64,000 nucleotides of DNA, from assembly GCA_963729715.1 (NCBI GenBank), contig CAVSPA010000006.1:135748-199747 (forward strand), written 5' to 3'. The notes beneath the pieces were generated by a model. It was not told where the DNA came from. It saw only the letters and a program-made list of their open reading frames with translations, and made no database searches. Origin of the DNA: an uncultured delta proteobacterium. GTDB taxonomy: Bacteria; Desulfobacterota; Syntrophia; Syntrophales; UBA2185. Positions 14,482 to 31,320 of the stretch are shown here, piece after piece; position 1 is the first letter of the stretch; the number at the start of each line of letters is the position of its first letter. A program made the translations under genes and the position numbers.

Positions 14482-15576
14482 ATGAGCAAAGTCCGTAAAA
14501 TGATGGACAATAATAAGAAGAGATTTGCACTTTTTTTAGTCTTTGCTCTTATGATTGTCTGTGTGGCAGGCGTTTTTTATTACCGCGAGTACAGAACGAG
14601 GTATGTTAGCACAGATGACGCATATGTTACGGGCAGGATTCATGTGATCGCATCGAAGGTTCCCGGTACGGTGAGGACAGTTTATGTTGAGGACAATCAG
14701 TTTGTAAAGAAGGATGATGTCCTCCTCGAGATCGACGACAGAGACTATGATGTCAGGGTCAAAGAAGCTGAATCCGCGCGGAATGCGGAGCATGCAAAAC
14801 TCGAAGAGGTTTCGACGAAGGTGGATGTGACAAAGAAGCAGTTGTTGGAATTGCAATTCACCGTGAAGTCGGCGCGGGCAAATCTGAATCTCCAGGAGGC
14901 AAATCTCAAGCAGGCGGATCTGGATTTCAAGAGGGCTCAGAAGCTTCGCGCGAAAGAGGTTGTGCCGGAAGAAAGGCTGGAAAAGGCCAAGACGAATTAT
15001 GACGTTACTGCTGCGCAGGTTGAAGCATCGAGAGAACACTTAAAGCAGGTTGAGGCTGCCCTCGAAACACAGAAGGCACTGATACAGCAGACAGAGTCGG
15101 CCTTTGAATCACAGAACTCCGTGGTGAAACAGAGGGAAGAAACGCGTAAAGCGGAGGATTTGAAGAAGAGTTATACGAAGATTTATGCGCCCGCGGATGG
15201 ATACATCACAAAGAAGTCCGTGGAGAACGGCAACCAGATCCAGCCAGGGCAGCCACTGATGGCCGTTGTTCCCCTCGATGATATCTGGGTAATTGCAAAT
15301 TATAAGGAAACGCAGATCGAGAATGTGAAGCCCGGTCAAAAGGCGAAGATCAAAGTGGATACGTATCCGGACCGTGATTTTGAGGGGACGGTGCAGAGCA
15401 TCATGGCTGGAACCGGCTCTATCTTTTCCCTGTTTCCTCCTGAGAATGCAACGGGAAATTATGTGAAAGTTGTCCAGCGGGTGCCGATAAAGATTGTCCT
15501 CAAGGAAGGGACGGATCCCAACCATATTCTCAGGGTCGGCATGTCTGTTGAACCGACAATCATCACGAAGGAATAG
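14482..15576 (+). CDS. HlyD/EmrA-family membrane fusion protein (efflux)
   Basis: 364 aa: N-terminal TM helix, long coiled-coil region, C-terminal beta-barrel motifs (YVTGRIHVIASKV...IYAPADGYITKKSVENGNQIQPGQPLMAVVP). Confidence 0.85.
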   Translation: MSKVRKMMDNNKKRFALFLVFALMIVCVAGVFYYREYRTRYVSTDDAYVTGRIHVIASKVPGTVRTVYVEDNQFVKKDDVLLEIDDRDYDVRVKEAESARNAEHAKLEEVSTKVDVTKKQLLELQFTVKSARANLNLQEANLKQADLDFKRAQKLRAKEVVPEERLEKAKTNYDVTAAQVEASREHLKQVEAALETQKALIQQTESAFESQNSVVKQREETRKAEDLKKSYTKIYAPADGYITKKSVENGNQIQPGQPLMAVVPLDDIWVIANYKETQIENVKPGQKAKIKVDTYPDRDFEGTVQSIMAGTGSIFSLFPPENATGNYVKVVQRVPIKIVLKEGTDPNHILRVGMSVEPTIITKE

Positions 15577-19100: not shown

Positions 19101-20759
19101 ATGAAGTGTCCTAAATGCCAGTTTGAAAATAGAGATGGGGCGAAATTCTGCAAAGATTGCGGTCACAAATTGGAGGCCCTATGTTCCCAGTGCGGAGCTA
19201 TAAATCTGCCCGACAGTAAATTTTGCGATAGTTGCGGACGGAGATTAGATGAAACTGGACAAAAAGAAAAGGCAATTCCCGCACCTGAGGGCGAGCGCAA
19301 GCACGTCACAGTATTGTTTTCCGATGTGTCCGGCTATACGACTATGTCTGCGAGACTTGATCCTGAAGAAGTGAAGGAGATCATGGGGCAGATCATAGGT
19401 GGCGTAAACAGGGTCATTAAGCAGTATGGGGGATTCATGGAGAAGTATGTCGGTGATGCCGTCATGGCTCTCTTCGGTGCTCCTTTTGCCCAGGAAGATG
19501 ATCCGGTAAGGGCGATAAAAGCCGCCGGAGATATCCATGGCGTCGTTAAATCCCTGAGTCAGCGGTACGAAGAGAAGATCGGGAAACCGCTGGCAATGCA
19601 TACGGGCATCTGTACCGGCTTAGTCGTAACAGGTAACGTCAATTTAGAAAAAGGGACCCACGGAGTATTGGGAGATACGATCAACGTGGCTTTCCGGCTC
19701 TCTGCCCTGGCAAAGCCAGGCGAAATCATTGTGGACACTGGCACTTATCGCCGAGCGGCGGGACATTTCAATTTTGATACTCTCGAGCCGGCCACTGTGA
19801 ATGGCAAGACAGAACCCGTAAGGATTTTCAGGGTTATATCACCCGAGGAAAAACCCACCAAGACTCACCGCCTGTCCGGCATGAGGGCGGAACTTATAGG
19901 GCGTAAGGTGGAGATGGCTCAATTACAAGGAAGCCATATACAATTTGAAACAGGGGGCCGTGTTCTCCATCGTGGGCGATGCCGGCACAGGGAAAAGCAG
20001 GCTCATCGAAGAGTTCACGGCTGCATTGGACATCAAGGAGATTCGGTGAAGGGGGGGGACATTGTTATCCCTACAGCCAGAACATCCCCTACTTTCCCCT
20101 CATCAATCTCCTGAGCCGGGCATGGCAGATTCGCGAGGGTGACTCGGCCGATATGGTAAGACAAAAGGTCGAAGCCGGGGCGAAAAATCTGATCGGAGAC
20201 AGGAAAGACCGTATACCCTATGTGGGAAGCCTTTATTCCCTCAACTACGCGGAGATCGAAAGCGTCAGCCCCCATTTTTGGAAGGCTCGTCTTCATGAGA
20301 CGGTAAGGAAGATTTTTTCGGCGGCCCTTCCACGCATAGGTCCGACGGTCATCTGCGTTGAGGATCTGCATTGGGCAGATCCGTCCTTTGTAGAACTATT
20401 GCGTCACGTCCTTGCTGATTTCAGGTTTCCGGCGATCGTCCTGTGTACCTACAGACCTTCGTTTAGTCTCTTCACAGTCCATCAGGTGAACGGTCTGGGT
20501 AAGTTGTACCAGGAGATCAGACTCTATGATCTCTCAAAGGGCGGAGGAGAGTTTCCAAAAGGCCATAGAGGTAGCAAGAGAGATCGGGGCTAAGGGCGTG
20601 CTCGGTCAATGTTATCTCGACTTGGGGCAACTATACAAGGTCAAGAAGAAAACCGATCAGGCGAGGAAATGCATTGCCGACGCCGTGGAGACTTTTAAAG
20701 AGTGCGAGGCGGATGTCTTCCTGCAACAGGCCAGAGAGTCTTTAGAAGCTTTGATTTAA
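19101..20759 (+). pseudogene. adenylate/guanylate cyclase - AAA ATPase - TPR protein, disrupted by two frameshifts and an internal deletion
   Basis: Double zinc-ribbon N-terminus and class III cyclase domain (VTVLFSDVSGYTTMSARLDPEEV...YVGDAVMALFGAP...LGDTINVAFRL) in frame A to ~19930. Walker A (AVFSIVGDAGTGKSRLIEEF) is in a second frame. After the G8 run at 20051-20058 a third frame carries ...ICVEDLHWADPSFVELLRHV.... A terminal TPR (20526-20759) is in a fourth frame. Total length is ~550 codons against ~1100 aa for intact homologues. Confidence 0.75.
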
Positions 20760-21521: not shown

Positions 21522-22004
21522 ATGAGAGCATTACTCATAAGAATCATACTTGTTACTTTTCTATTTGTCTTCTTCGTTTCAGGACAATTACAGTCACAAG
21601 AGGAGAGCGATGGTCGATTTATTGCAAAAGGCAACGGGACGGTATTGGATACCAAGACCGGCCTGATATGGGCGGCGCGGGACAACGGAAGCGATATCAG
21701 ATGGCCTAAGGCCAAGTCGTATTGTGAGAACTACCGCGGTGGCGGGTATACGGACTGGCGGATGCCGACACGTGACGAACTGGCGGGGTTGTATGATGCG
21801 AACAAATCCCAAAAAGTAGAATGCGGCGGTCTCCCCATCCATGTTGCTACAGACTTAATTCGTCTTACTTGCTTGTGGGCGTGGGCCTCTGAGAGGCGCG
21901 GTTCCTACGCTGCTGACTTCGATTTCATGGATGGCAAGTGGGGCTGGTATCACCGATTAATCCACTACAAGTGCCGGGCGCTCCCGGTGCGCTTTAGCAA
22001 ATAG
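21522..22004 (+). CDS. secreted DUF1566 (Lcl C-terminal domain) protein
   Basis: Signal peptide, then GTVLDTKTGLIWAARDNG...YCENYRGGGYTDWRMPTRDELAGLYD, the DUF1566 signature. Confidence 0.75.
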   Translation: MRALLIRIILVTFLFVFFVSGQLQSQEESDGRFIAKGNGTVLDTKTGLIWAARDNGSDIRWPKAKSYCENYRGGGYTDWRMPTRDELAGLYDANKSQKVECGGLPIHVATDLIRLTCLWAWASERRGSYAADFDFMDGKWGWYHRLIHYKCRALPVRFSK

Positions 22005-22639: not shown

Positions 22640-23113
22640 ATGAGAAAGATAGCAACATGGATTGCAGTAGTTACAGCGACTTTAATGTTGAATATGATGT
22701 TTGCGCTACCATCATTTGCTCAAAAATCACAGGCGGCAGGGTCTAGCGTATCAATGGGTGCCTGGACTTTTGGCATTCCAGCACTTGATGCCGAAACATC
22801 ATTTACTGGAACGGAAGCAATAGTGGCCAAACCGGGTACGGTGAAGAAAATTGAGCCGATGACCGGTGTGAAAGGCGGCCTACAAATGAGATTCGTGCCG
22901 GATCAAGGTAATGCATGCAAAGTCTATATGGGGCCCAAGTGGTTCATTGAAAATCAGAAGGTCAAATTTATCGCCGGCGACAAGGTCGAAGTAAGGGGTA
23001 AGAAGTATGGTAACGCGATCATTGCCACGGAAATAAGCAAGGGCGATTTGACCATGAAACTTCGCAACGAGGAAGATGGTATGCCAATCTGGGAAAGTAG
23101 CTTCCGCCGGTAA
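22640..23113 (+). CDS. exported hypothetical protein
   Basis: AAGGAGG RBS, signal peptide MRKIATWIAVVTATLMLNMMFALPSFAQ, single Cys in ...GNACKVYMGPKWF.... The track start at 22607 is upstream of the RBS-supported ATG. Confidence 0.6.
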   Translation: MRKIATWIAVVTATLMLNMMFALPSFAQKSQAAGSSVSMGAWTFGIPALDAETSFTGTEAIVAKPGTVKKIEPMTGVKGGLQMRFVPDQGNACKVYMGPKWFIENQKVKFIAGDKVEVRGKKYGNAIIATEISKGDLTMKLRNEEDGMPIWESSFRR

Positions 23114-23340
23114 GTAAAAAGGTAATAATAAACAAGCGATCCACGACCCACCCAATTTTTGAGCCGGCTCAATGCATTATAATAAAGTTTTGATCTCGAC
23201 TTGCTAGTCAGTGAGTTTTAGACACAGCAATTAACAACATTTTACCCCGGAAGAAGGAGATAAAGATGGTGATGAGATGGTTACTGAAGGGTCTGTTTCT
23301 TTCTCTGCTCTTTGTTGACATATTTAGTGAGAAAATTAGC

Positions 23341-23369
23341 TTGACATAGAAGAAAAATCACTCTTATAC
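23341..23369 (+). promoter_or_regulatory. sigma70-like promoter TTGACA-N18-TATACT ahead of the HMA selenoprotein gene
   Basis: Read directly from the sequence, ~70 nt upstream of ATG 23436. Confidence 0.4.
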
Positions 23370-23435
23370 TTTGCCAACAAAAAAAGGACTTCTTATCAAT
23401 TATAATCTAACCCAAAAATAGTGAGCAGAATACCC

Positions 23436-23747
23436 ATGAAGCGGAGGAAACATTCCCTTATCGTCTGTCTTTTGAGTGTGATGCTCCTGCTCGTCACGTT
23501 ACAACCCCTTTTTGCTGCCGAAAGAATTATCAAAATGGTGGTTCCCGGATGCGAGTGACAGGACACGGCTAACAGGGTACGTGATGCCCTGAAGGAAATC
23601 CCGGGCGTGCTGGAGTATGATGCGGATCAATTTACTCACGAAGTAATGGTAAAATTCGACGACACAAAAACCAGTATCAATAAGATTGTAGAGGGTCTGG
23701 CCAAGCAAGAATTCCCGATCGAAGGGCAGCCGAAGATCACCCAGTAA
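23436..23747 (+). CDS. periplasmic heavy-metal-associated (HMA/MerP-like) protein with in-frame UGA: candidate selenoprotein with a G-C-E-U motif
   Basis: Manual translation: MKRRKHSLIVCLLSVMLLLVTLQPLFAAERIIKMVVPGCE[TGA]QDTANRVRDALKEIPGVLEYDADQFTHEVMVKFDDTKTSINKIVEGLAKQEFPIEGQPKITQ*. The HMA beta-alpha-beta-beta-alpha-beta pattern continues in frame across the TGA at 23556-23558. The TGA aligns with the first Cys of GMxCxxC. The gene is not in the ORF track. Confidence 0.7.
23573..23591 (+). promoter_or_regulatory. SECIS-like hairpin CAGGGT-ACGTGAT-GCCCTG, 14 nt downstream of the UGA
   Basis: 6-bp stem with a 7-nt loop containing GUG. Its size, spacing and CAG...CTG ends match the hairpin after the second UGA at 24254-24272. 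Confidence 0.6.
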
Positions 23748-23945
23748 GCTTGAAGAGATGCGGGGTGATTAATACACGCTCAAGACTATCTGACAAGTGG
23801 TTATCATAATGTGAACGAGGGACTATATTATGAAAAGCCGACAGTTTACATGGATATGGTTGTTTCTCGGCTTTTTTGTCTCTTTTACGCTGGCCCAAAC
23901 AATAGTAGCCAATAAAGAGACTACGACTCTCATAAGGAGGAATAA

Positions 23946-24371
23946 GTGAGAAAAACAGTATTTTTTTTGGTCATTGTGGTGCTTGCGGTGTGTTTTGCGG
24001 GAACGGCTGCTTTCGCCGCGACGGAGCTCACCCTCGAGAGCGTACAGAAGATATCTGTTGACGGGTTGAAAGCGCAGCTTGGGAATCCCGATGTCATCGT
24101 TATCGATGTGCGGACGGCCCACGACTGGGAGGGCAGCAAGACCAAGATCAGGGGGGCTGTTCGCGAGGACACCCACAATATTGCCTCCTGGATCAACAAG
24201 TATCCAAAAGAGAAAACACTCGTTTTTTATTGCAAGTGACTGAATGAAGCGACCAGTGCCAGTGTGGCACTGCAGTTCATGGCGAAAGGATACAAGAAAG
24301 TATACGCAGTGAAAGGTGGATGGAGGGCCTGGGAGGTAGCGAAGTACCCAGTCGAACCCAAGGGGGAATAA
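23946..24371 (+). CDS. periplasmic single-domain rhodanese with in-frame UGA in the active-site loop (Y-C-K-U): candidate selenoprotein
   Basis: GTG start with AAGGAGG. Signal peptide MRKTVFFLVIVVLAVCFAGTAAFAA. ...DVIVIDVRTAHDWEGSKTKIRGAV...KEKTLVFYCK[TGA]LNEATSASVALQFMAKGYKKVYAVKGGWRAWEVAKYPVEPKGE*. The rhodanese C-terminal consensus (G(Y/F)knVy.l.GG..aW...g.P) continues in frame after the TGA at 24237-24239. The ORF track stops at the TGA. Confidence 0.75.
24254..24272 (+). promoter_or_regulatory. SECIS-like hairpin CAGTGC-CAGTGTG-GCACTG (or 8-bp stem with GUG loop), 14 nt downstream of the UGA
   Basis: Perfect inverted repeat CAGTGCCA/TGGCACTG. Same 19-nt length, same 14-nt offset, and the same CAG...CTG and GTG-loop features as 23573-23591. 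Confidence 0.65.
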
Positions 24372-24402
24372 ATAGCTGCTTCCGAGATGCCGACCTCTGG
24401 AC

Positions 24403-24768
24403 TTATTGGATCTTCTTGAAGGTCATCTCTTTGGAGCCTGGGAGGGTCATCCGAATGGTGTCCTTCTCTATCTTTCCCACAATCACTCCCCCTGCTCTGG
24501 TGTTCACCCGCAACTCCCCCTGCTTGATGTACCACATAAAGGGGATCTCTATGAAGGTGCCCGCTACCTCATCAGAGGGCACTCTCCACAGACCATCTCC
24601 ATTCGCCTTCAATTCCAGGACGCTCTCACCCTGCTTCACCGACTCTTTCCCCGCCGCTTTGTATACCCCCACGTATTTATCTTTGGACTCGCATGACAGC
24701 AGAAGCATCAGAAGCACGCAAAGACCAACCATCAATACATATCCATGATATCTTGACGTGTGCATCAT
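24403..24768 (-). CDS. lipoprotein, hypothetical
   Basis: Lipobox LLLSC in the signal peptide MMHTSRYHGYVLMVGLCVLLMLLLSC. Last gene of the minus-strand operon. Confidence 0.6.
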   Translation of the reverse strand: MMHTSRYHGYVLMVGLCVLLMLLLSCESKDKYVGVYKAAGKESVKQGESVLELKANGDGLWRVPSDEVAGTFIEIPFMWYIKQGELRVNTRAGGVIVGKIEKDTIRMTLPGSKEMTFKKIQ

Positions 24769-24776
24769 AGGCCACC

Positions 24777-25280
24777 TTATCGCGATCCTGTAAGAGCAGC
24801 GACCCTGCCCTTCATGCTGGGCAGTAAGCCCCCCCTGCGGAAGATGAACAACCTGTCACAGAAGTAAATCTGTATCGTGAAGAGGAGCAGCACTACGTCC
24901 TCACTGACTTTCTTCCACCCAATGGGCTCCCCCACCGTATCATAACATCCACAGGTAATTGACGCTCCCCAGTACATGTTGGTCAGGACCATCGCGGTAA
25001 ACATGATCAACATCAAACCGATGAGGGTCGCTGCCGCCCTCGTCCTCAGCCCGATGATTAGAAACAGCCCGCTTACAAACTCGATCCACGGCAATAGTAC
25101 AGCCCCCACATTAAGAAACCAGTACGGGATCAGTTGATAGGCTGCCACCGCTTCCGCAAACTGTGCAGGGTGAGGTATCTTGCTCACGCTCGCGTACAGA
25201 AAGAAATAGCCCACGTAAACCCTTAGAATGAGCGCCAGATACGGACTCCTCACAATCCGCTTTAGAAATGTCCGGATCAT
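24777..25280 (-). CDS. MauE/DoxX-family membrane protein with C-terminal TCGCYD motif
   Basis: 167 aa, 4 TM segments, CGC near the end of the last helix, as in MauE-type thiol-disulfide proteins. Confidence 0.7.
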
Positions 25281-26203
25281 TCCTTCCCTTTCTCCTCCTC
25301 GACCGGATAGCCCTTTTTCTCCCAGGCCACCATCCCCCCCTCCAACACCTTCACATCCTTATGCCCACGAAGAAGGAGCTTGTCTGCCAGCTCCCAATCG
25401 TAGAGTTTGCTGAATGTTCCTCCATACACAATCACCTTTTTCCCCTTCTCATCCTCTCCGTAGGCCATCATGTACACGATATCAAAAAGAGAGAGCGGTA
25501 TGCTGATCGCCCCCTGGATATGCTTCTTTTCATAGAAGGCTTCAGGACCCGCATCCACGATGAGCGCTTCCCCCTTCTTCGCCTCTTCCATCGCCTGAGT
25601 AGCGCTGATCTCGGAAATCGCTTTCCTGTCAGGAAACTTCGGAAACAGGGGTATCCCGTTCGGGTTGGACTTATTGAATACGAGGGCAAGAATTACGCTC
25701 ACCCCGATCAGTAGCAGAAAATCAAACCAGGATATCCGATGTGCCTTGTAAAGTTGCTGCGCTTCCTTCTCAATGATCTCCTCATCCCTCAGAAGCCATC
25801 CCGACATCTGCTTCACAAAGGCTAGGGAAATATGGGGAAAGTCCTTCAGAATATGCTCAAACTGCACTTTAGAAAGCACCATCAGACAAGTCTCTTCCAC
25901 CGCCTCCACGTTCGCTGATCTCACCTCCCCTGTAAGCAGGGCCATCTCGCCAAAGCTTTCCCCCGCTCCCAGCACAGATAGGTCCGTCTCCAATCCTTCA
26001 GCGTCCTTCCTGAACACCCTCACTTTTCCTGAATGAATAATGTAAAACTTGTCCCCTGGATCCCCCTGCCTGAAGATGATCGTACGCCGTGATACCACCT
26101 GCTTCTCCATAGCCCGAGTGAGCTCACCCCACTTCTCTTTGGGCAATTGCTCGAAAAGGCTGCTTCCCGTAAGTCCCTCTTTCCCGCTCTCGTTCTCGCT
26201 CAT
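25277..26203 (-). CDS. cyclic-nucleotide-binding domain - TM - rhodanese-domain protein; the rhodanese domain lacks the catalytic Cys
   Basis: cNMP-binding signature ([22 protein letters not shown]), one TM segment ([18 protein letters not shown]), and a C-terminal rhodanese fold. The fold reads [25 protein letters not shown]...[47 protein letters not shown], with GGTFSK where C(R/K)xGx(R/T) is expected. Confidence 0.8.
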
Positions 26204-26209
26204 GGCATT

Positions 26210-26462
26210 CTACTGCTTCTTATGGATTTCCCTTACTTCCTTCACGTGTCCATCAATATCAAAGGTCACCTTCGTTGTCTGGTCGACGGGTTGACATCCA
26301 CAGACTTCACGCCCATCATTCTCGAGAGGATAATCCTTATGGACATGAAGGAGTGACTTTAGACGCACCCCCGGAGAGCTCAACACCACTCTTCTCTCGA
26401 CAACCGTCACCACTTGGCTCGTCGCAAACAGCGCAACCAATAGCGATCAGCACGCCGAGCAT
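26210..26462 (-). CDS. small Cys-rich lipoprotein, apparently frameshifted at a G5/C5 run (low confidence)
   Basis: GTG/ATG start at 26462 gives MLGVLIAIGC|AVCDEPSGDGCREKSGVELSGG.... Deleting one C from CCCCC at 26368-26372 joins it to ...VRLKSLLHVHKDYPLENDGREVCGCQPVDQTTKVTFDIDGHVKEVREIHKKQ*, ending 6 nt before the downstream ATG. Motifs: CxxC, GC, CGC. Confidence 0.3.
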
Positions 26463-26745
26463 CACAATCCATTTCCCTCTTGCGCCTATAAGACATCGTT
26501 TTTTGGAATGTTTATCGTATGGCGCAGATAGTTCTGGATGTCAAACAAATTCGGTGGCTCATTGTATGTTTCGAAGACCTCAAATGGCATCACGTTCCTC
26601 TGCGGAGTCCTGGACTACTTTAGGAGTGGAACAAATCTGGAATGGCAGCTTGACCCCCGCTACGGTAATCATTTCTCGCCATGCAGAGCTGTCCTTACCC
26701 CAAAAGATGCTTCTTCACCAAAAGATGAGAGACTGAAAGTGTCGG

Positions 26746-27870
26746 TTATATTCGTTCCCCGCACTGATTGCAGAACATGGATTTTGGCAGATTTTCGGTG
26801 CCGCACTTTGGGCACTTGAGTGACTCGGGTTTCTCTTCTACAGGGTGGCCGCACTGCACGCAAAATTTCGCATTGGGTGGAAGATTCTTGCCGCACTGAG
26901 AACATTGCTGAAAGACAACGATCTGGTGCCCGCAATGGGGGCAGAACTTGGCTTCTTTAGATACATTTTGCTGGCAGTCGGGACAGCTGAAAATTTCCGG
27001 TGTCGAGGTCTGCTGGGTCGGTGAGCTCTTAAATGCCTCGGCGAACATGGCGGGCATCATGAAGCCCATTCCCATGCCCAGTCCGGCTCCCGCCTGTCCC
27101 TGTGACTGGGCTGCTGTCTCCATGGCCATGGCCGCCTTCATCTTCAAGAGTTTATTGAGGTCATCAAAAATCCCGAGGCGGCTCTTATCGTCTATGGCCT
27201 TCTGAACTTCCGGCGGCGGCGTGATGGAATTGATATACAGCTGGGAGAGGCCCAAACCAAAGTGAGAAAAATCTTCTTCGAGGGCCTTTTTCAGACCGAG
27301 AGCGAGCTCATCGTATTTTGCGGGAAGGTTAAAGATGGTATCGATATGCTTTCCCATGAAATCGTTAAAGCGGGAAACGATTACACGGTTCAGGTATTCT
27401 TCAATGGCATCAGCAGTAAATACGCCCTGGGTTCCGACAAGACTGTTTATCAGGAGAATGGGCTGAAGAACCTGGATGTTAAAAACCCCGAATGCCCTGA
27501 GACGGATGAGTCCCAATTCTGAATCTCTGAAGGCGACGGGATCGCGTGTTCCCCATTTCAGATTGGGAAAGACTTTCATATTGACGAAGTAAACTTCTGC
27601 CCGCAGCGGGCTGGTCATTCCCCAGGGCAGGCTGAATATTTTTGTCAAAATTGGAATATTGGCCGTTTGTAGTGTGTGCCTGCCGGGCCCGAATGCATCA
27701 TAGGCCTTGCCGTTATAGAAAAAAACCGCGGCCTGACTTTCTCGAACCGTCATCTGTGCGCCGAACTTGATTTCACCAGATCCATTTTCGGGGATTCTAT
27801 GAACCAGCTCTTTCCCCTGCTCGTCAAACCATTCGATAACTTCCAGAAATATTAGGTTGTTGGTTCCCAT
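26746..27870 (-). CDS. SPFH/Band-7 domain protein with three C-terminal double zinc-ribbons
   Basis: 374 aa. SPFH core, then CPDCQQNV...FCPHCGHQ, CSQCGKNLPPNAKFCVQCGHP and CPKCGTENLPKSMFCNQCGERI. Confidence 0.75.
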   Translation of the reverse strand: MGTNNLIFLEVIEWFDEQGKELVHRIPENGSGEIKFGAQMTVRESQAAVFFYNGKAYDAFGPGRHTLQTANIPILTKIFSLPWGMTSPLRAEVYFVNMKVFPNLKWGTRDPVAFRDSELGLIRLRAFGVFNIQVLQPILLINSLVGTQGVFTADAIEEYLNRVIVSRFNDFMGKHIDTIFNLPAKYDELALGLKKALEEDFSHFGLGLSQLYINSITPPPEVQKAIDDKSRLGIFDDLNKLLKMKAAMAMETAAQSQGQAGAGLGMGMGFMMPAMFAEAFKSSPTQQTSTPEIFSCPDCQQNVSKEAKFCPHCGHQIVVFQQCSQCGKNLPPNAKFCVQCGHPVEEKPESLKCPKCGTENLPKSMFCNQCGERI

Positions 27871-28296
27871 ATATGCGGTCTTTCAAGATCGTTTTTCTTA
27901 TCGTCAGGGCATGTATAAAGCCTCTCATGACAAGCTGATGAGGCCGACTTTTAACTCCAAGCATGATAGGCAAGCGCAGATACTATGTCAAGGAGAAAGC
28001 AGTACGTGTATTCAGGGTTTCCGGACCCTCCTTGACCTCTCCCGCTTTTGCCGCGATTGTTTTTCAGTCAGTAGAAAAAGCCACATCGATTATTCGGTTC
28101 GCATTTTTGCGATAGTTACAATTTTGTAATTTTTAAATTTAAATGAACAAAATTGTTACAGATTATACCATCTAACATCAGAAACCTGATACAACAAATT
28201 AGTTAATACAGCTACTTACATAATATGACTCGGTTAGCATCAAAATTGCAAAACAATATCCTTGATATATCAAATAACCCGCGGGAGGTAAATTGT

Positions 28297-29529
28297 ATGA
28301 ACTCAGGCGATACAGCATGGGTATTAGTATCGACAGCGCTGGTCTTTTTTATGGTTCCAGGATTGGCGCTTTTTTATGGGGGCATGACACGCAGGAAGAA
28401 TGTCCTCTCCACCCTGATGCAATGCATCATCGTCGTGTGCCTGATAAGTGTCCAGTGGGTATTATTCGGTTACACGCTGGCGTTCGGACCCGATTCAGGC
28501 TTCGGAATACTTGGAAATCTCGACTTCATATGTCTGCGGAATGTGGGTTTCAACCCTTTCAATGAATATTCAAAAACAATCCCCCATCTCGCGTTTATGA
28601 TTTTTCAGTGCATGTTTGCCATTATTACACCCGCATTGGTCATTGGCGCATTTGCGGAGCGCATCAAATTTTCGTCTTTTTGCATTTTTTCCTTGCTGTG
28701 GGCTACTTTTGTCTACGACCCCATCGCACACTGGATTTGGGGAGCCGGTGGCTGGCTGAAAGAATTGGGAGGCCTTGATTTTGCCGGCGGTATGGTTGTT
28801 CATGGAAGCTCAGGTTTTGCCGCACTTGTCGTTTGTCTTCTGATTGGCCAGAGAGTCGGCTATCAAGAACAGCCTTTCCGGCCGCATAATCTTCCCTTTA
28901 CCGTATTGGGGGCCGGCATGCTCTGGTTCGGGTGGTTCGGCTTCAACGCTGGGAGCGCTCTTGAAGCGAGCGGGTTGGCAGTTAATGCCTTTGTCAGCAC
29001 CAATATTGCCGCTGCAGTTGCGGCTCTGACATGGGCAATCTGGGAGTGGCAGAAACACGGCGCACCGACCATGCTCGGTTTGGTTACCGGTATTATAGCC
29101 GGACTAGGGGCAATTACGCCGGCCTGTGGTTATGTAAGGCCTCTTGCGGCCATACCAATTGGAATTTTGGCAGGCGTTTTCTCTTTCCTCGCTGTAACAA
29201 AAATGAAAGCCAGACTGGGTTATGATGATTCGCTGGATGTTTTCGGCGTTCATGGAATTTGCGGCGTATGGGGAACAATTGCAACAGGCCTCTTTGCGGA
29301 AAAAGCAATTAATGCCGCCGGAGAAAACGGCTTTCTTTTCGGCAACGCTAAACTGCTACTCATACAGGGGCTTTATGTTGCTGTCACTATTTGTTACTCA
29401 GTCGCAGTAACCTGGATTCTGTATAAATTCGTTGATGCCTTTATGGGCATGAGGGTTGAGAAGAAGGATGAGATCATCGGCCTTGACCTGACCCAGCATC
29501 ACGAATCCGCCTACACCGTTGTGGAATAA
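28297..29529 (+). CDS. amtB: ammonium transporter AmtB
   Basis: GGGAGG RBS, then MNSGDTAWVLVSTALVFFMVPGLALFYGGMTRRKNV...DFAGGMVVHGSSGFAALV.... Canonical Amt family. The track start at 28225 precedes the RBS-supported ATG. Confidence 0.9.
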   Translation: MNSGDTAWVLVSTALVFFMVPGLALFYGGMTRRKNVLSTLMQCIIVVCLISVQWVLFGYTLAFGPDSGFGILGNLDFICLRNVGFNPFNEYSKTIPHLAFMIFQCMFAIITPALVIGAFAERIKFSSFCIFSLLWATFVYDPIAHWIWGAGGWLKELGGLDFAGGMVVHGSSGFAALVVCLLIGQRVGYQEQPFRPHNLPFTVLGAGMLWFGWFGFNAGSALEASGLAVNAFVSTNIAAAVAALTWAIWEWQKHGAPTMLGLVTGIIAGLGAITPACGYVRPLAAIPIGILAGVFSFLAVTKMKARLGYDDSLDVFGVHGICGVWGTIATGLFAEKAINAAGENGFLFGNAKLLLIQGLYVAVTICYSVAVTWILYKFVDAFMGMRVEKKDEIIGLDLTQHHESAYTVVE

Positions 29530-29544
29530 GGAGGGTAGTTAGCC

Positions 29545-29886
29545 ATGAAATATATAGTCGCGATAATACAGCCCCACAAACTGGACGAGGTGATGAAAAG
29601 CCTGGAGGATGTGGAGGTGAACTTGGTGACCGTATCGAATGTACTCGGACGCGGCAGGCAGAAGGGTTTGACGGAGATCTACCGGGGTGCGAAGGAGGTA
29701 GGGAGCCTGCTGAAGAAGATAAAGCTGGAGATAGCGTGCAACGAGGATTTTGTGGAGCCGACGGTACAGGCGATCATCAAGGGAGCACGGACGGGAGAGA
29801 TCGGAGACGGGAAGATATTCGTGATTGACCTCTACGATGTTATCCGGATCCGCACAGGCGAACGGGGCGGCAAGGCCATAGGATAA
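29545..29886 (+). CDS. glnK: P-II nitrogen regulatory protein GlnK
   Basis: 113 aa: [16 protein letters not shown]...T-loop GRGRQKG...[31 protein letters not shown]. Adjacent to amtB. Confidence 0.9.
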
Positions 29887-29904
29887 AGGAGAGGTGCGAG
29901 AGAT

Positions 29905-31320
29905 ATGAATCTTAAAGAGCTAATGAAGTATTCCAAGGACAAGCGTCTGGAGTTTATTGATCTGAAATTCACGGACATCCCAGGATTGTGGCAGCACATC
30001 ACGATACCGATCCAGCAGTTGGACGAGGACCTGGTTATCCATGGTATCGGTTTCGATGGTTCGAGCATCCGGGGGTTCCAGCCGATCAACGAGAGTGACA
30101 TGCTGATCAAGCCTGATCCTGAGACCGCATTCATCGATCCTTTCATGGCGGATCCCACGCTGAGCATGATCTGCAACGTCAAGGATCCCCTGACGCAGAT
30201 ACCGTATTCGCGTGACCCGCGTAACGTAGGACAGAAGGCGGAGAGGTACCTATCGGTCTGCGGGATAGCGGATCAGGTTTTTTTCGGTCCGGAGCCCGAG
30301 TTTTACGTCTTTGATGATGTACGTTTCGAACAGACTTACAACACGGGTTTTTACCGTGTCGATTCGAAGGAGGGATTCTGGAATACGGCAAGGGACGAGG
30401 GGCCGAATCTCGGATACAAGCCGCGCTACAAAGAAGGCTACTTTCCTGTGCCTCCCACAGACAGCCTGCAGAATCTCCGGGCGAAAATGTGCAAGGTGAT
30501 GACGGAAGTGGGGATTCCTGTGATTCTCCATCACCACGAGGTTGCCACGGCGGGCCAGTGCGAGATCGGTGTGCGTATCAATAACCTTGTGGACACGGGA
30601 GACATGTTGATGAAGTACAAGTATGTGGTAAAGAACGTCGCCCTGGCGCACGGGAAGACGGTGACGTTCATGCCGAAGCCGCTCTTCATGGATAACGGTT
30701 CGGGAATGCATGTGCACCAGAGCCTCTGGAAGAACGGCAGGAACCTATTTTATGAGCCAGGCGGATACGGAGGAATCAGCAAGCTCTGCCGCAACTATAT
30801 CGGGGGCCTGCTGCATCATGCTCCATCGCTTCTGGCCTTTACGTCACCCACGACGAATTCATACAGGAGACTCGTTCCGGGGTATGAGGCTCCGATCAAC
30901 CTGGTGTACTCGCAGCGGAACCGGAGCGCATGTGTGAGGATACCGATGTATTCACCCTCCGAGAAGGCGAAGCGTATAGAGTTTCGTTGTCCCGACTGTT
31001 CCTGCAATCCGTACCTGGCGCTTGCGGCGATGCTCATGGCGGGTCTGGACGGCATCGAGAACGAGATCGAGCCGCCGCCGCCCATCGATGAGGATATCTA
31101 TGAGCTTTCGCATGAGGAGAAGAGCCATATCAAGGCGACGCCCGGCTCCCTTTCAGAGGTGCTGGATGCGCTGGAGAAGGAGCACTCCTATCTTCTTAAA
31201 GGTGATGTCTTTACGGAGGACCTGATCCAGACGTGGATCGAGTACAAACGAAAGAGGGAGGACGACCTGATCAGGCTTCGTCCCCATCCTTACGAGTTTG
31301 CGTTGTACTACGATATTTAA
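29905..31320 (+). CDS. glnA: glutamine synthetase type I
   Basis: 471 aa with [22 protein letters not shown] and [10 protein letters not shown] motifs. Ends LYYDI. Confidence 0.9.

Follow-up and report, generated by a model that had tools for sequence, protein, structure and literature searches.

A conserved MauE redox operon with a rhodanese-fold protein lacking the catalytic cysteine, beside a loose islet of selenoprotein genes in an uncultured Syntrophales bacterium

Introduction

According to a recent proposal, only one other disulfide-forming enzyme is more common than MauE in bacteria. The MauE proteins of Desulfatibacillum aliphaticivorans and Caldithrix abyssi restore motility and PhoA activity in Escherichia coli ΔdsbB; this complementation requires the CXC motif of the periplasmic loop between transmembrane (TM) helices TM3 and TM4, the docking of quinone resembles that in DsbB, and the Phe-Gly pair directly after the CXC is highly conserved in the family (10.64898/2026.03.05.709764). 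The same preprint cites an earlier report in which MauE was regarded as a possible reductase (10.64898/2026.03.05.709764). Among the catalogued selenoproteins, a 2026 review lists the NF041203 family as form 3 of the rhodaneses, with a CxU motif in which U is selenocysteine (Sec) (PMC13188914). Here we analyse a stretch of 64,000 nucleotides from an uncultured delta proteobacterium of the Syntrophales (positions 135,748 to 199,747 of contig CAVSPA010000006.1, assembly GCA_963729715.1; hereafter the window), in which a minus-strand operon encoding a MauE-family protein faces two plus-strand genes interrupted by in-frame TGA codons, one for a rhodanese (Sec-rhodanese) and the other for a protein with a heavy-metal-associated domain (HMA-Sec).

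An earlier note on this DNA had read the convergent genes as a regulated chalcogen or thiophilic-metal relay across the inner membrane. The facts it reported proved mostly right, and the combination it described was partly confirmed: one part is a conserved redox operon and the other a lineage-specific juxtaposition. The window holds a conserved redox operon plus a loose islet made up of MamS/MamX-like, HMA-Sec and Sec-rhodanese genes. The interpretation that we favour, with moderate confidence, is that the operon would encode a cytoplasmically gated, DsbB-like oxidase of periplasmic thiols or selenols, with the Sec-rhodanese as its best candidate partner and the islet as a separate unit.

Results

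A MauE-family protein in a conserved three-gene operon

The minus-strand operon consists of three intact genes, encoding a protein that joins a cyclic nucleotide (cNMP)-binding domain to a rhodanese domain, a MauE-family membrane protein and a small lipoprotein (Table 1). The first two genes overlap by 4 nt and an 8-nt gap separates the MauE gene from that of the lipoprotein, so that the spacing of at most 6 nt, or overlap, described previously holds for the first junction and is exceeded at the second. The convergence of the plus- and minus-strand units, also described previously, stands; their stop codons lie 31 nt apart.

The membrane protein scores 92.6 bits against the Pfam MauE model (cut-off 27, E 3.2e-26) and 40.7 bits against DoxX (3.7e-10), in agreement with its earlier description as a MauE/DoxX protein with a CGC motif. 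As judged by reading the sequence, its SITCGCYD segment sits between hydrophobic stretches at residues 84-104 and 125-143, which places it in the TM3-TM4 loop. Nineteen of 20 MauE orthologues have the CGC, the exception being the interrupted gene of locus L011, and CGC[YF]D is conserved across 19-20 of them. The Lys and Glu of an S-K-I...F-A-E pattern are likewise conserved among these orthologues, and may be the counterparts of the Lys and Glu that the preprint describes as conserved near TM1/TM2 (B8FLW7, H1XRV2). By analogy with the complementing MauE proteins, that of the window is probably a DsbB-like, quinone-linked thiol oxidase. The L011 gene (10923-13241) carries an insert of about 1.8 kb at query residues 112/106, which may be a mobile element.

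The protein encoded upstream of MauE matches Pfam cNMP_binding (88.6 bits, cut-off 27.5, E 2.6e-25) and Rhodanese (2.9e-12), arranged as an N-terminal cNMP domain, one TM helix at about residues 159-176 and a C-terminal rhodanese fold. The secondary structure predicted by AlphaFold2 (AF2) follows the order of barrel, long helix, TM helix and alpha/beta domain; the full-length model was poor (pLDDT 63) and was used for this order only. The cNMP domain holds the phosphate-binding cassette (FGE..A....R[ST]A), with Q or H in place of E in some relatives. The active-site loop of the rhodanese domain, VYGGTFSK, has no catalytic Cys, and the alignment with 6mxv places a gap or G at the Cys position, which bears out the lack of a catalytic Cys first read from its GGTFSK motif. 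The YGGT.S loop is invariant in 17 homologues, the periplasmic part is without a conserved Cys, and the active-site loop (VYG[GRN]x.S) never holds a Cys in the homologues examined. As far as its sequence tells, this pseudo-rhodanese domain is catalytically dead and lies across the membrane from a cytoplasmic ligand-binding domain; having no Cys, it would be unable to carry S or Se.

Using the TM helix plus rhodanese domain as a query against 1.84 billion representatives, we retrieved 235 relatives at E<=1e-10. The TM-rhodanese module is C-terminal in nearly all of the best 150 of these 235, and the N-terminal input is variable: cNMP, REC (P0262), cNMP plus GAF (P0269), GAF (P0341) or none (L023). 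One relative of 479 aa, P0323, combines in a single chain the cNMP domain, the TM helix, the Cys-less rhodanese, an extra TM helix and MauE. This fusion supports a physical complex of the pseudo-rhodanese with MauE, and its extra TM helix is consistent with a rhodanese domain in the periplasm and an N-in MauE after it. Cyclase genes lie near the operon in 7 loci, in 4 of them adjacent, within one or two genes (L001, L010, L017, L052). The cyclase encoded in the window is a possible source of the cNMP ligand, a weak indication since such lineages may carry many cyclases.

The terminal lipoprotein, recognised as such in the earlier note, is Cys-free in its mature part and is predicted to fold into an 8-stranded beta-barrel (pLDDT 81), resembling small lipocalin/avidin-like lipoproteins. 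Its family comprises 179 clusters, with zero Pfam matches; a Pfam plus NCBIfam search of the window lipoprotein and of two small upstream open reading frames (ORFs) also gave none.

To establish how widely the operon occurs, 185,579 species genomes were scanned with the cNMP-rhodanese protein, giving 25 loci (L001-L025), all from Thermodesulfobacteriota-type metagenome-assembled genomes of the Syntrophales, Syntrophorhabdales, Syntrophobacteraceae and Desulfobacteraceae; together with the window these make 26 operon loci. Of the 25, 24 extend as far as the MauE position, and in every one of these the pseudo-rhodanese gene precedes MauE. The lipoprotein, found by tblastn in 22 of the 25, is a conserved third gene of the operon. 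Over the 26 loci, the conserved unit runs from a MauD-like thioredoxin (Cys or Sec), through the protein composed of input domain, TM helix and Cys-less rhodanese, to MauE and the lipoprotein. Our literature searches found no published description of a module uniting the input-TM-pseudo-rhodanese protein, MauE and the lipoprotein, and no work linking MauE with a rhodanese or with Sec.

A decayed thioredoxin gene upstream of the operon

The first of four operon genes had been described as encoding a Cys-rich lipoprotein. The region in question (26210-26465) holds a 42-aa ORF (26337-26465) that ends in TAA and a 76-aa ORF (26210-26440) in a different frame, and the CxxC/GC and CGC parts of the supposed protein lie in different frames. 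A 1-nt indel separates this region from that of the other assembly of the same strain, and L002 differs by indels of -1, -2, +1 and -4; the sequence of L001 is unrelated further upstream and provides no start codon for the remnant. Conservation is confined to the last ~20 codons (KVTFDIDGHVKEVREIHKKQ plus stop), which match the C-terminus (...VIKDFDGLVKEIREIHKKQ plus stop) of full-length thioredoxin-fold genes occupying the same position in 13 distant loci. The region has no Pfam or NCBIfam match, and five MauD-like queries gave no tblastn match in the window at E<1e-4. The supposed lipoprotein gene is the indel-broken remnant of a MauD/TlpA-like thioredoxin gene and not an intact gene, which reduces the operon from four genes to three. 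A programmed frameshift at the upstream ORF was considered and rejected, because the indels vary among relatives and the region is absent from L001.

The other assembly, L026, seemingly of the same strain, differs by a single-base indel at window position ~26446 (L026 ~7760), GATCGCT against GATCGGCT; assembly errors may explain some of the frame breaks in the window.

The intact counterpart in the 13 loci is a thioredoxin-fold CxxC gene with a signal peptide (AhpC-TSA/Redoxin/Thioredoxin_8), located directly upstream of the pseudo-rhodanese gene and nowhere else in those loci. The other 12 loci and the window have no MauD-like gene within 10 kb. The first Cys of the motif is encoded by TGA, giving UPxC, in L007 (1439), L018 (9601) and L021 (8222), and is Cys in the other loci. 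About 22 nt downstream of the UPxC site lies a hairpin with compensatory changes (CCTGT/ACAGG, CCCTGT/ACAGGG and CCTAT/ATAGG).

The Sec-rhodanese and its association with MauE

Both Sec-candidate genes of the earlier note are genuine, as supported by frame conservation past the TGA, by their hairpins and, for the rhodanese, by the NF041203 score. The Sec-rhodanese reaches 169.3 bits against this NCBIfam model (rhodanese_LYCAU, cut-off 115) when scored with U replaced by C, and its N-terminus is signal-peptide-like. The TGA stands two residues after a Cys in the motif FYCK-TGA-LNEATSAS. With the N-terminal half of the protein as query, 80 metagenomic loci were retrieved; each of the 83 tblastn matches shows a stop codon at the Sec site and conserved coding sequence beyond it. 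The hairpin, resembling a Sec insertion sequence (SECIS), begins 17 nt past the UGA; across 70 family members, 98.6% of the cells of its 5-bp core, ~19 nt past the UGA, are paired, and three of the five pairs show compensatory changes, values matched by 0 of 500 shuffles. By its sequence, the Sec-rhodanese is a genuine selenoprotein and a member of the catalogued NF041203 family.

Variants of this protein occur elsewhere: L001 has a second CxU paralogue (14558-14986, minus strand; YCT-U) beside a MamS/MamX-like gene, L067 has three tandem CxU copies (37-1390), and three family members carry UxU, with two Sec residues, a form reportedly described earlier for Olavius symbionts.

The Sec-rhodanese gene is adjacent in 7 of the 26 operon loci and HMA-Sec in 3 (the window, L001 and L002); the four-way arrangement of HMA-Sec, Sec-rhodanese, cNMP-TM-rhodanese and MauE put forward for this cluster is consequently not a conserved one. 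Seen from the other side, MauE is a neighbour in 6 of 57 informative metagenomic Sec-rhodanese loci. The two genes meet in three ways: convergent after the lipoprotein (the window, L001-3, L006, L009 and L028), divergent before the cNMP gene (L008, L048 and L052), and convergent with a second subtype of MauE, ~26% identical and carrying CGCFG (L044, L092 and L105). These distinct arrangements suggest a real link between CxU rhodaneses and MauE, though a minority pattern, and the Sec-rhodanese is the only islet gene with a repeated genomic link to MauE. Adjacency was found in 7 of the 13 loci without the thioredoxin gene against 0 of the 13 with it; that all genomic Sec-rhodanese cases are without the thioredoxin gene fits a replacement of one by the other.

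HMA-Sec and the remainder of the islet

HMA-Sec scores 36.3 bits against Pfam HMA (cut-off 24.8; E 7.4e-9) and has a signal-peptide-like N-terminus. Its hairpin begins 17 nt past the UGA and is kept in L001, L002 and L028 with a U-G to U-A change, and the Sec codon is TGA in 3 of 3 related loci read as DNA. The family is very small: clustering at 90% identity leaves 19 clusters, none of which falls below 70% identity to the query. In 14 of 14 homologues inspected, the Sec site is either W, consistent with a gene caller reading TGA as Trp, or falls where the sequence ends just before or starts after it. Given the absence of a Cys homologue among the sequences inspected from the 19 clusters, an argument from Sec/Cys pairing is impossible and frame conservation was used instead. 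By its sequence, HMA-Sec is a genuine selenoprotein of a narrow MerP-like family.

Among solved structures, HMA-Sec comes closest to CopA domains and to MerP (1osd/1afi; E about 4e-7). When VPGCEUQDT is aligned with VPGMTCSAC, C replaces M, U the first Cys and T the second Cys; the metal-binding motif GMTCxxC is thus absent from HMA-Sec and GCEU stands in its place. The score against the MerP equivalog TIGR02052 (42.8 bits) is below its cut-off of 92.55, and the protein is also below the cut-offs of both curated NCBIfam HMA selenoprotein models that it matched. No MerT, MerA or MerR gene was found near it, nor was the family found in the review's table of selenoprotein families (PMC13188914).

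Elsewhere, HMA-Sec keeps other company. It is followed in L108-L112 by a periplasmic peroxiredoxin (Prx)-like selenoprotein (FTPV-U-TGE). L108 (3946-8931) encodes CydA, a protein of 844 aa in which cytochrome bd subunit II is fused to a pyridine-nucleotide-disulfide oxidoreductase, HMA-Sec and a Prx-Sec bearing a signal peptide, a cluster that may serve a periplasmic oxygen and peroxide defence built on selenoproteins. The 39-codon ORF of the window (MKSRQFTWIWLFLGFFVSF..ANKETTTL) corresponds to the Prx-Sec of L109-L112 (MEKRRFTWIWLFLGFFVFF..ANKETSSL), and the window DNA is colinear with the Prx-Sec loci up to the ribosome-binding site and start of the rhodanese gene. The junction of HMA-Sec and Sec-rhodanese is different in the window, L001, L002 and L028. 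The Prx-Sec 5' remnant marks the adjacency of the two Sec genes in the window as a recent, lineage-specific rearrangement.

The upstream exported protein of 157 aa, described previously as having a single Cys, does have one, and this residue is not conserved in homologues: the C-terminus of the family reads WECC in L001 (15137-15604) and L109 (8-367), but L002 and the window have WESS there. PF26390 is assigned to the gene as called in L026; no match was obtained in the Pfam copy or NCBIfam used for the window, and a PDB sequence search up to E 1 found no relative. Genes of this MamS/MamX-like family precede and adjoin HMA-Sec in L109 and lie near it in L001 and L002.

Other features of the window

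The features discussed are collected in Table 1. The low G+C at 22-24 kb is due to long AT-rich spacers and not to the genes themselves. Over the whole window, Rfam at gathering thresholds gave zero matches, neither Sec hairpin being matched, and ARAGORN gave zero tRNA genes.

Table 1. Positions of the operon, the facing islet and related features in the window
Feature	Positions	Strand	Domain, motif or remark
157-aa exported protein	22640-23113	+	MamS_MamX domain in precomputed annotation
HMA-Sec gene	23436-23747	+	in-frame TGA 23556-23558, motif VPGCE-U-QDT
HMA-Sec SECIS-like hairpin	23573-23591	+	CAGGGUA-CGUGA-UGCCCUG
39-codon ORF, Prx-Sec 5' remnant (signal peptide)	23830-23949	+	
Sec-rhodanese gene	23946-24371	+	in-frame TGA 24237-24239, motif FYCK-U
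Sec-rhodanese SECIS-like hairpin	24254-24272	+	CAGUGCCA-GUG-UGGCACUG
Small lipoprotein	24403-24768	-	lipobox LLSC
MauE-family four-TM protein	24777-25280	-	Pfam MauE/DoxX, CGC
cNMP_binding-TM-pseudo-rhodanese protein	25277-26203	-	Pfam cNMP_binding + Rhodanese
C-terminal remnant of MauD/TlpA-like thioredoxin gene	26210-26272	-	KVTFDIDGHVKEVREIHKKQ plus stop; no intact gene
Indel-variable non-coding/decayed stretch	26273-26465	-	two frames, TAA at 26337-26339
Zn-ribbon + class III adenylate/guanylate cyclase	19101-20114	+	Pfam Guanylate_cyc 1.1e-20

The cyclase ORF overlaps, in different frames of the plus strand, ORFs with AAA_16 (19979-20593) and TPR-like (20526-20759) content. The stretch 19101-20759 resembles one large cyclase-AAA-TPR gene with frameshifts, either a pseudogene or the result of assembly indels, and is split differently in L026. 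A gene for an exported protein with an Lcl C-terminal domain (21522-22004, plus strand) separates the cyclase region from the selenoprotein islet; in L001 it is found inside the islet. Upstream of the operon are a gene for an SPFH/band-7 protein whose C-terminal part has several zinc ribbons (26746-27870, minus strand) and, beyond it, a divergent amtB-glnK-glnA cluster (28225-31320, plus strand); both are syntenic in the closest relative, L002, only, and no link to the operon is apparent for either.

Discussion

Starting from the observed gene content, Sec status, conservation patterns and fusions, we infer a direction of electron flow, a gating step and a partner role for the Sec-rhodanese. 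MauE would take electrons from a periplasmic redox partner and pass them to membrane quinone. Ligand binding in the cytoplasm would alter how the pseudo-rhodanese presents partner proteins to MauE or blocks them from it, and the beta-barrel lipoprotein would be a third subunit. The ancestral periplasmic partner would have been the MauD/TlpA-like thioredoxin encoded just upstream, with CPxC or, in some lineages, UPxC, whose gene has decayed here; the strongest candidate to have taken its place, as partner or client, is the Sec-rhodanese. HMA-Sec came in with the rearrangement that truncated its usual Prx-Sec neighbour.

Several points weigh against a gated oxidase served by the Sec-rhodanese. 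The function of MauE is drawn from one preprint on other MauE proteins, the subfamily of the window has [YF]-D and not Phe-Gly after the CXC, and the report that saw in MauE a possible reductase would reverse the flow of electrons. The gating idea derives solely from domain architecture, and the full-length AF2 model is poor. The Sec genes and the operon are convergent and hence not co-transcribed; 51 of the 57 informative Sec-rhodanese loci have no MauE nearby and 19 of the 26 operon loci no Sec-rhodanese. Finally, the distribution of thioredoxin loss and Sec-rhodanese adjacency is phylogenetically confounded, may reflect one or two events and amounts to no statistical result.

A bolder version, which we regard as tentative and rather unlikely, is a selenium-based disulfide relay gated by second messengers, in which swappable cytoplasmic cNMP, REC or GAF inputs would act, by way of one TM helix, on a Cys-less rhodanese-fold adaptor that docks a UPxC thioredoxin or a CxU rhodanese onto MauE as the equivalent of DsbA. 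If this were true, oxidative protein folding or selenenylsulfide formation in the periplasm of these anaerobes would be switched from inside the cell.

Of the alternatives to the gated oxidase, the one that survives best, unlikely as we still consider it, is that the MauE operon and the selenoprotein genes are functionally unconnected neighbours, a shuffled islet having come to abut the operon in one clade. This would account for the convergent orientation, for the long AT-rich stretches that space the plus-strand genes, one of which has its own promoter-like site, for the HMA-Sec/rhodanese junctions that vary among the window, L001, L002 and L028, for the variable position of the 157-aa gene, and for the fact that most loci of either family are without the other. 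It is harder to reconcile with the presence of the Sec-rhodanese beside MauE-family genes in three arrangements, one involving the ~26%-identical second subtype, and with the 6 of 57 loci, which lie far above a rough expectation of well under 1% (a guess from a few copies per genome, not a computed value).

The flow of electrons might also run in reverse, MauE and its partners supplying reductant to periplasmic selenoproteins, namely the UPxC thioredoxin-like, CxU rhodanese and Prx-like ones, for defence of a strict anaerobe against peroxide, oxygen or electrophiles; we judge this to be distinctly improbable. TlpA-like thioredoxins are usually reductants, as this proposal would have it, and HMA-Sec homologues lie beside Prx-Sec, in L108 also with cytochrome bd and the CydB-disulfide-oxidoreductase fusion. 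The preprint's citation of MauE as a possible reductase points the same way, as does the M. tuberculosis DoxX, which works with the rhodanese-type SseA against oxidative stress (PMC9227533). Set against this, complementation of a dsbB deletion by MauE indicates an oxidase function, MauE has a single Cys pair and no DsbD-like cytoplasmic entry for electrons, and the Prx-like gene of the window is truncated.

The relay of the earlier note, six genes forming one regulated system that moves Se, S or thiophilic metals (Hg, Cu) across the inner membrane, is in our estimate very unlikely. Rhodaneses can carry persulfide or perselenide, and the soluble proteins are, as that note held, all predicted to be periplasmic, in a cluster of thiol/selenol-redox character. 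MerP is the named family most similar to HMA-Sec, and many metal-linked selenoproteins exist (PMC13188914). Yet HMA-Sec falls well short of the MerP cut-off with its CxxC replaced, and it accompanies the operon in three close relatives only (L001, L002 and L028), pairing elsewhere with a Prx-like protein. The cluster, moreover, has no transporter, MerT/MerA, P-type ATPase or YeeE-type gene that we could find. With no transporter in the operon, a pseudo-rhodanese free of Cys and a MauE that is DsbB-like according to the preprint, a membrane relay is unsupported and we prefer the oxidase. Least probable of all is a sulfur-oxidation unit like the DoxD/DoxX-type thiosulfate:quinone oxidoreductase with rhodanese domains handling thiosulfate, for although the DoxX match and two rhodanese-fold proteins would suit it, the MauE model scores far better, a CGC and an ancestral partner of the thioredoxin type are what MauE/MauD typically show, the rhodanese anchored in the membrane is inactive and there is no DoxA-like subunit.

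Taken together, the locus and its relatives suggest that MauE has a conserved set of accessory proteins, namely the input-TM-pseudo-rhodanese protein, the beta-barrel lipoprotein and a Sec or Cys thioredoxin. Should the gating of the favoured oxidase prove true, it would add a rare example of periplasmic redox chemistry controlled from the inside out, and the CxU rhodanese family, catalogued without a function, would gain a testable partner. The annotation of the region is also corrected: one supposed gene is a pseudogene remnant, and the 39-codon ORF a remnant of Prx-Sec.

The individual proteins compare with known ones as follows. HMA-Sec shares the HMA fold, the signal peptide and a similar size with MerP (1osd, 1afi), its best named match, and differs in having GCEUxxT for GMTCxxC, so that its CxU pair is shifted by two residues; it scores under the equivalog cut-off, stands outside any mer operon and usually neighbours a Prx-like selenoprotein. 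The Sec-rhodanese shares with the LYCAU family an above-cut-off score, the CxU, the TGA and the SECIS-like hairpin, with FYCKU where the commonest motif is LYCAU; the repeated adjacency to MauE was not found in the literature retrieved on that family. An inactive N-domain with a catalytic C-domain is the classical architecture of two-domain rhodaneses, and by analogy the window could rebuild such a pair in trans, from an anchored pseudo-rhodanese and a soluble Sec-rhodanese on separate polypeptides.

Coupling of such proteins to membrane redox enzymes has precedents. TsoB (NF045694; PMC13188914) joins a Sec-rhodanese to a membrane thiol-disulfide protein, though the fusion is to a DsbD-like protein and not MauE, its motif is UxxxxU, and the Sec-rhodanese of the window matches it weakly, at 34 bits against a cut-off of 805. 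The DoxX-SseA-SodA system of M. tuberculosis is alike in that a membrane protein of the DoxX/MauE superfamily cooperates with a rhodanese-fold thiol oxidoreductase; the subfamily is another one, SseA is a Cys rhodanese with two domains located in the cytoplasm, and neither a cNMP input nor selenium is involved (PMC9227533). DsbB-DsbA and VKOR-thioredoxin follow the same proposed logic, a four-helix membrane protein that returns a soluble or tethered partner in the periplasm to its oxidised state and delivers the electrons to quinone, without any sequence relationship to the MauE of the window, where the candidate partner is a selenoprotein. We found no description of DsbB or VKOR being gated by a cytoplasmic second-messenger domain, a point on which no dedicated search was made.

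The closest parallel is MauE/MauD itself, with the shared CXC in the TM3-TM4 loop, the occurrence in Thermodesulfobacteriota and a location outside any mau cluster (10.64898/2026.03.05.709764). A periplasmic thioredoxin-fold CxxC partner is likewise found in distant relatives of the window operon; across these relatives it is Sec or Cys, it has been lost in the window, and the CXC is followed by Y-D and not F-G. To the MauE/MauD pair the window operon adds a conserved input-TM-pseudo-rhodanese subunit and a beta-barrel lipoprotein.

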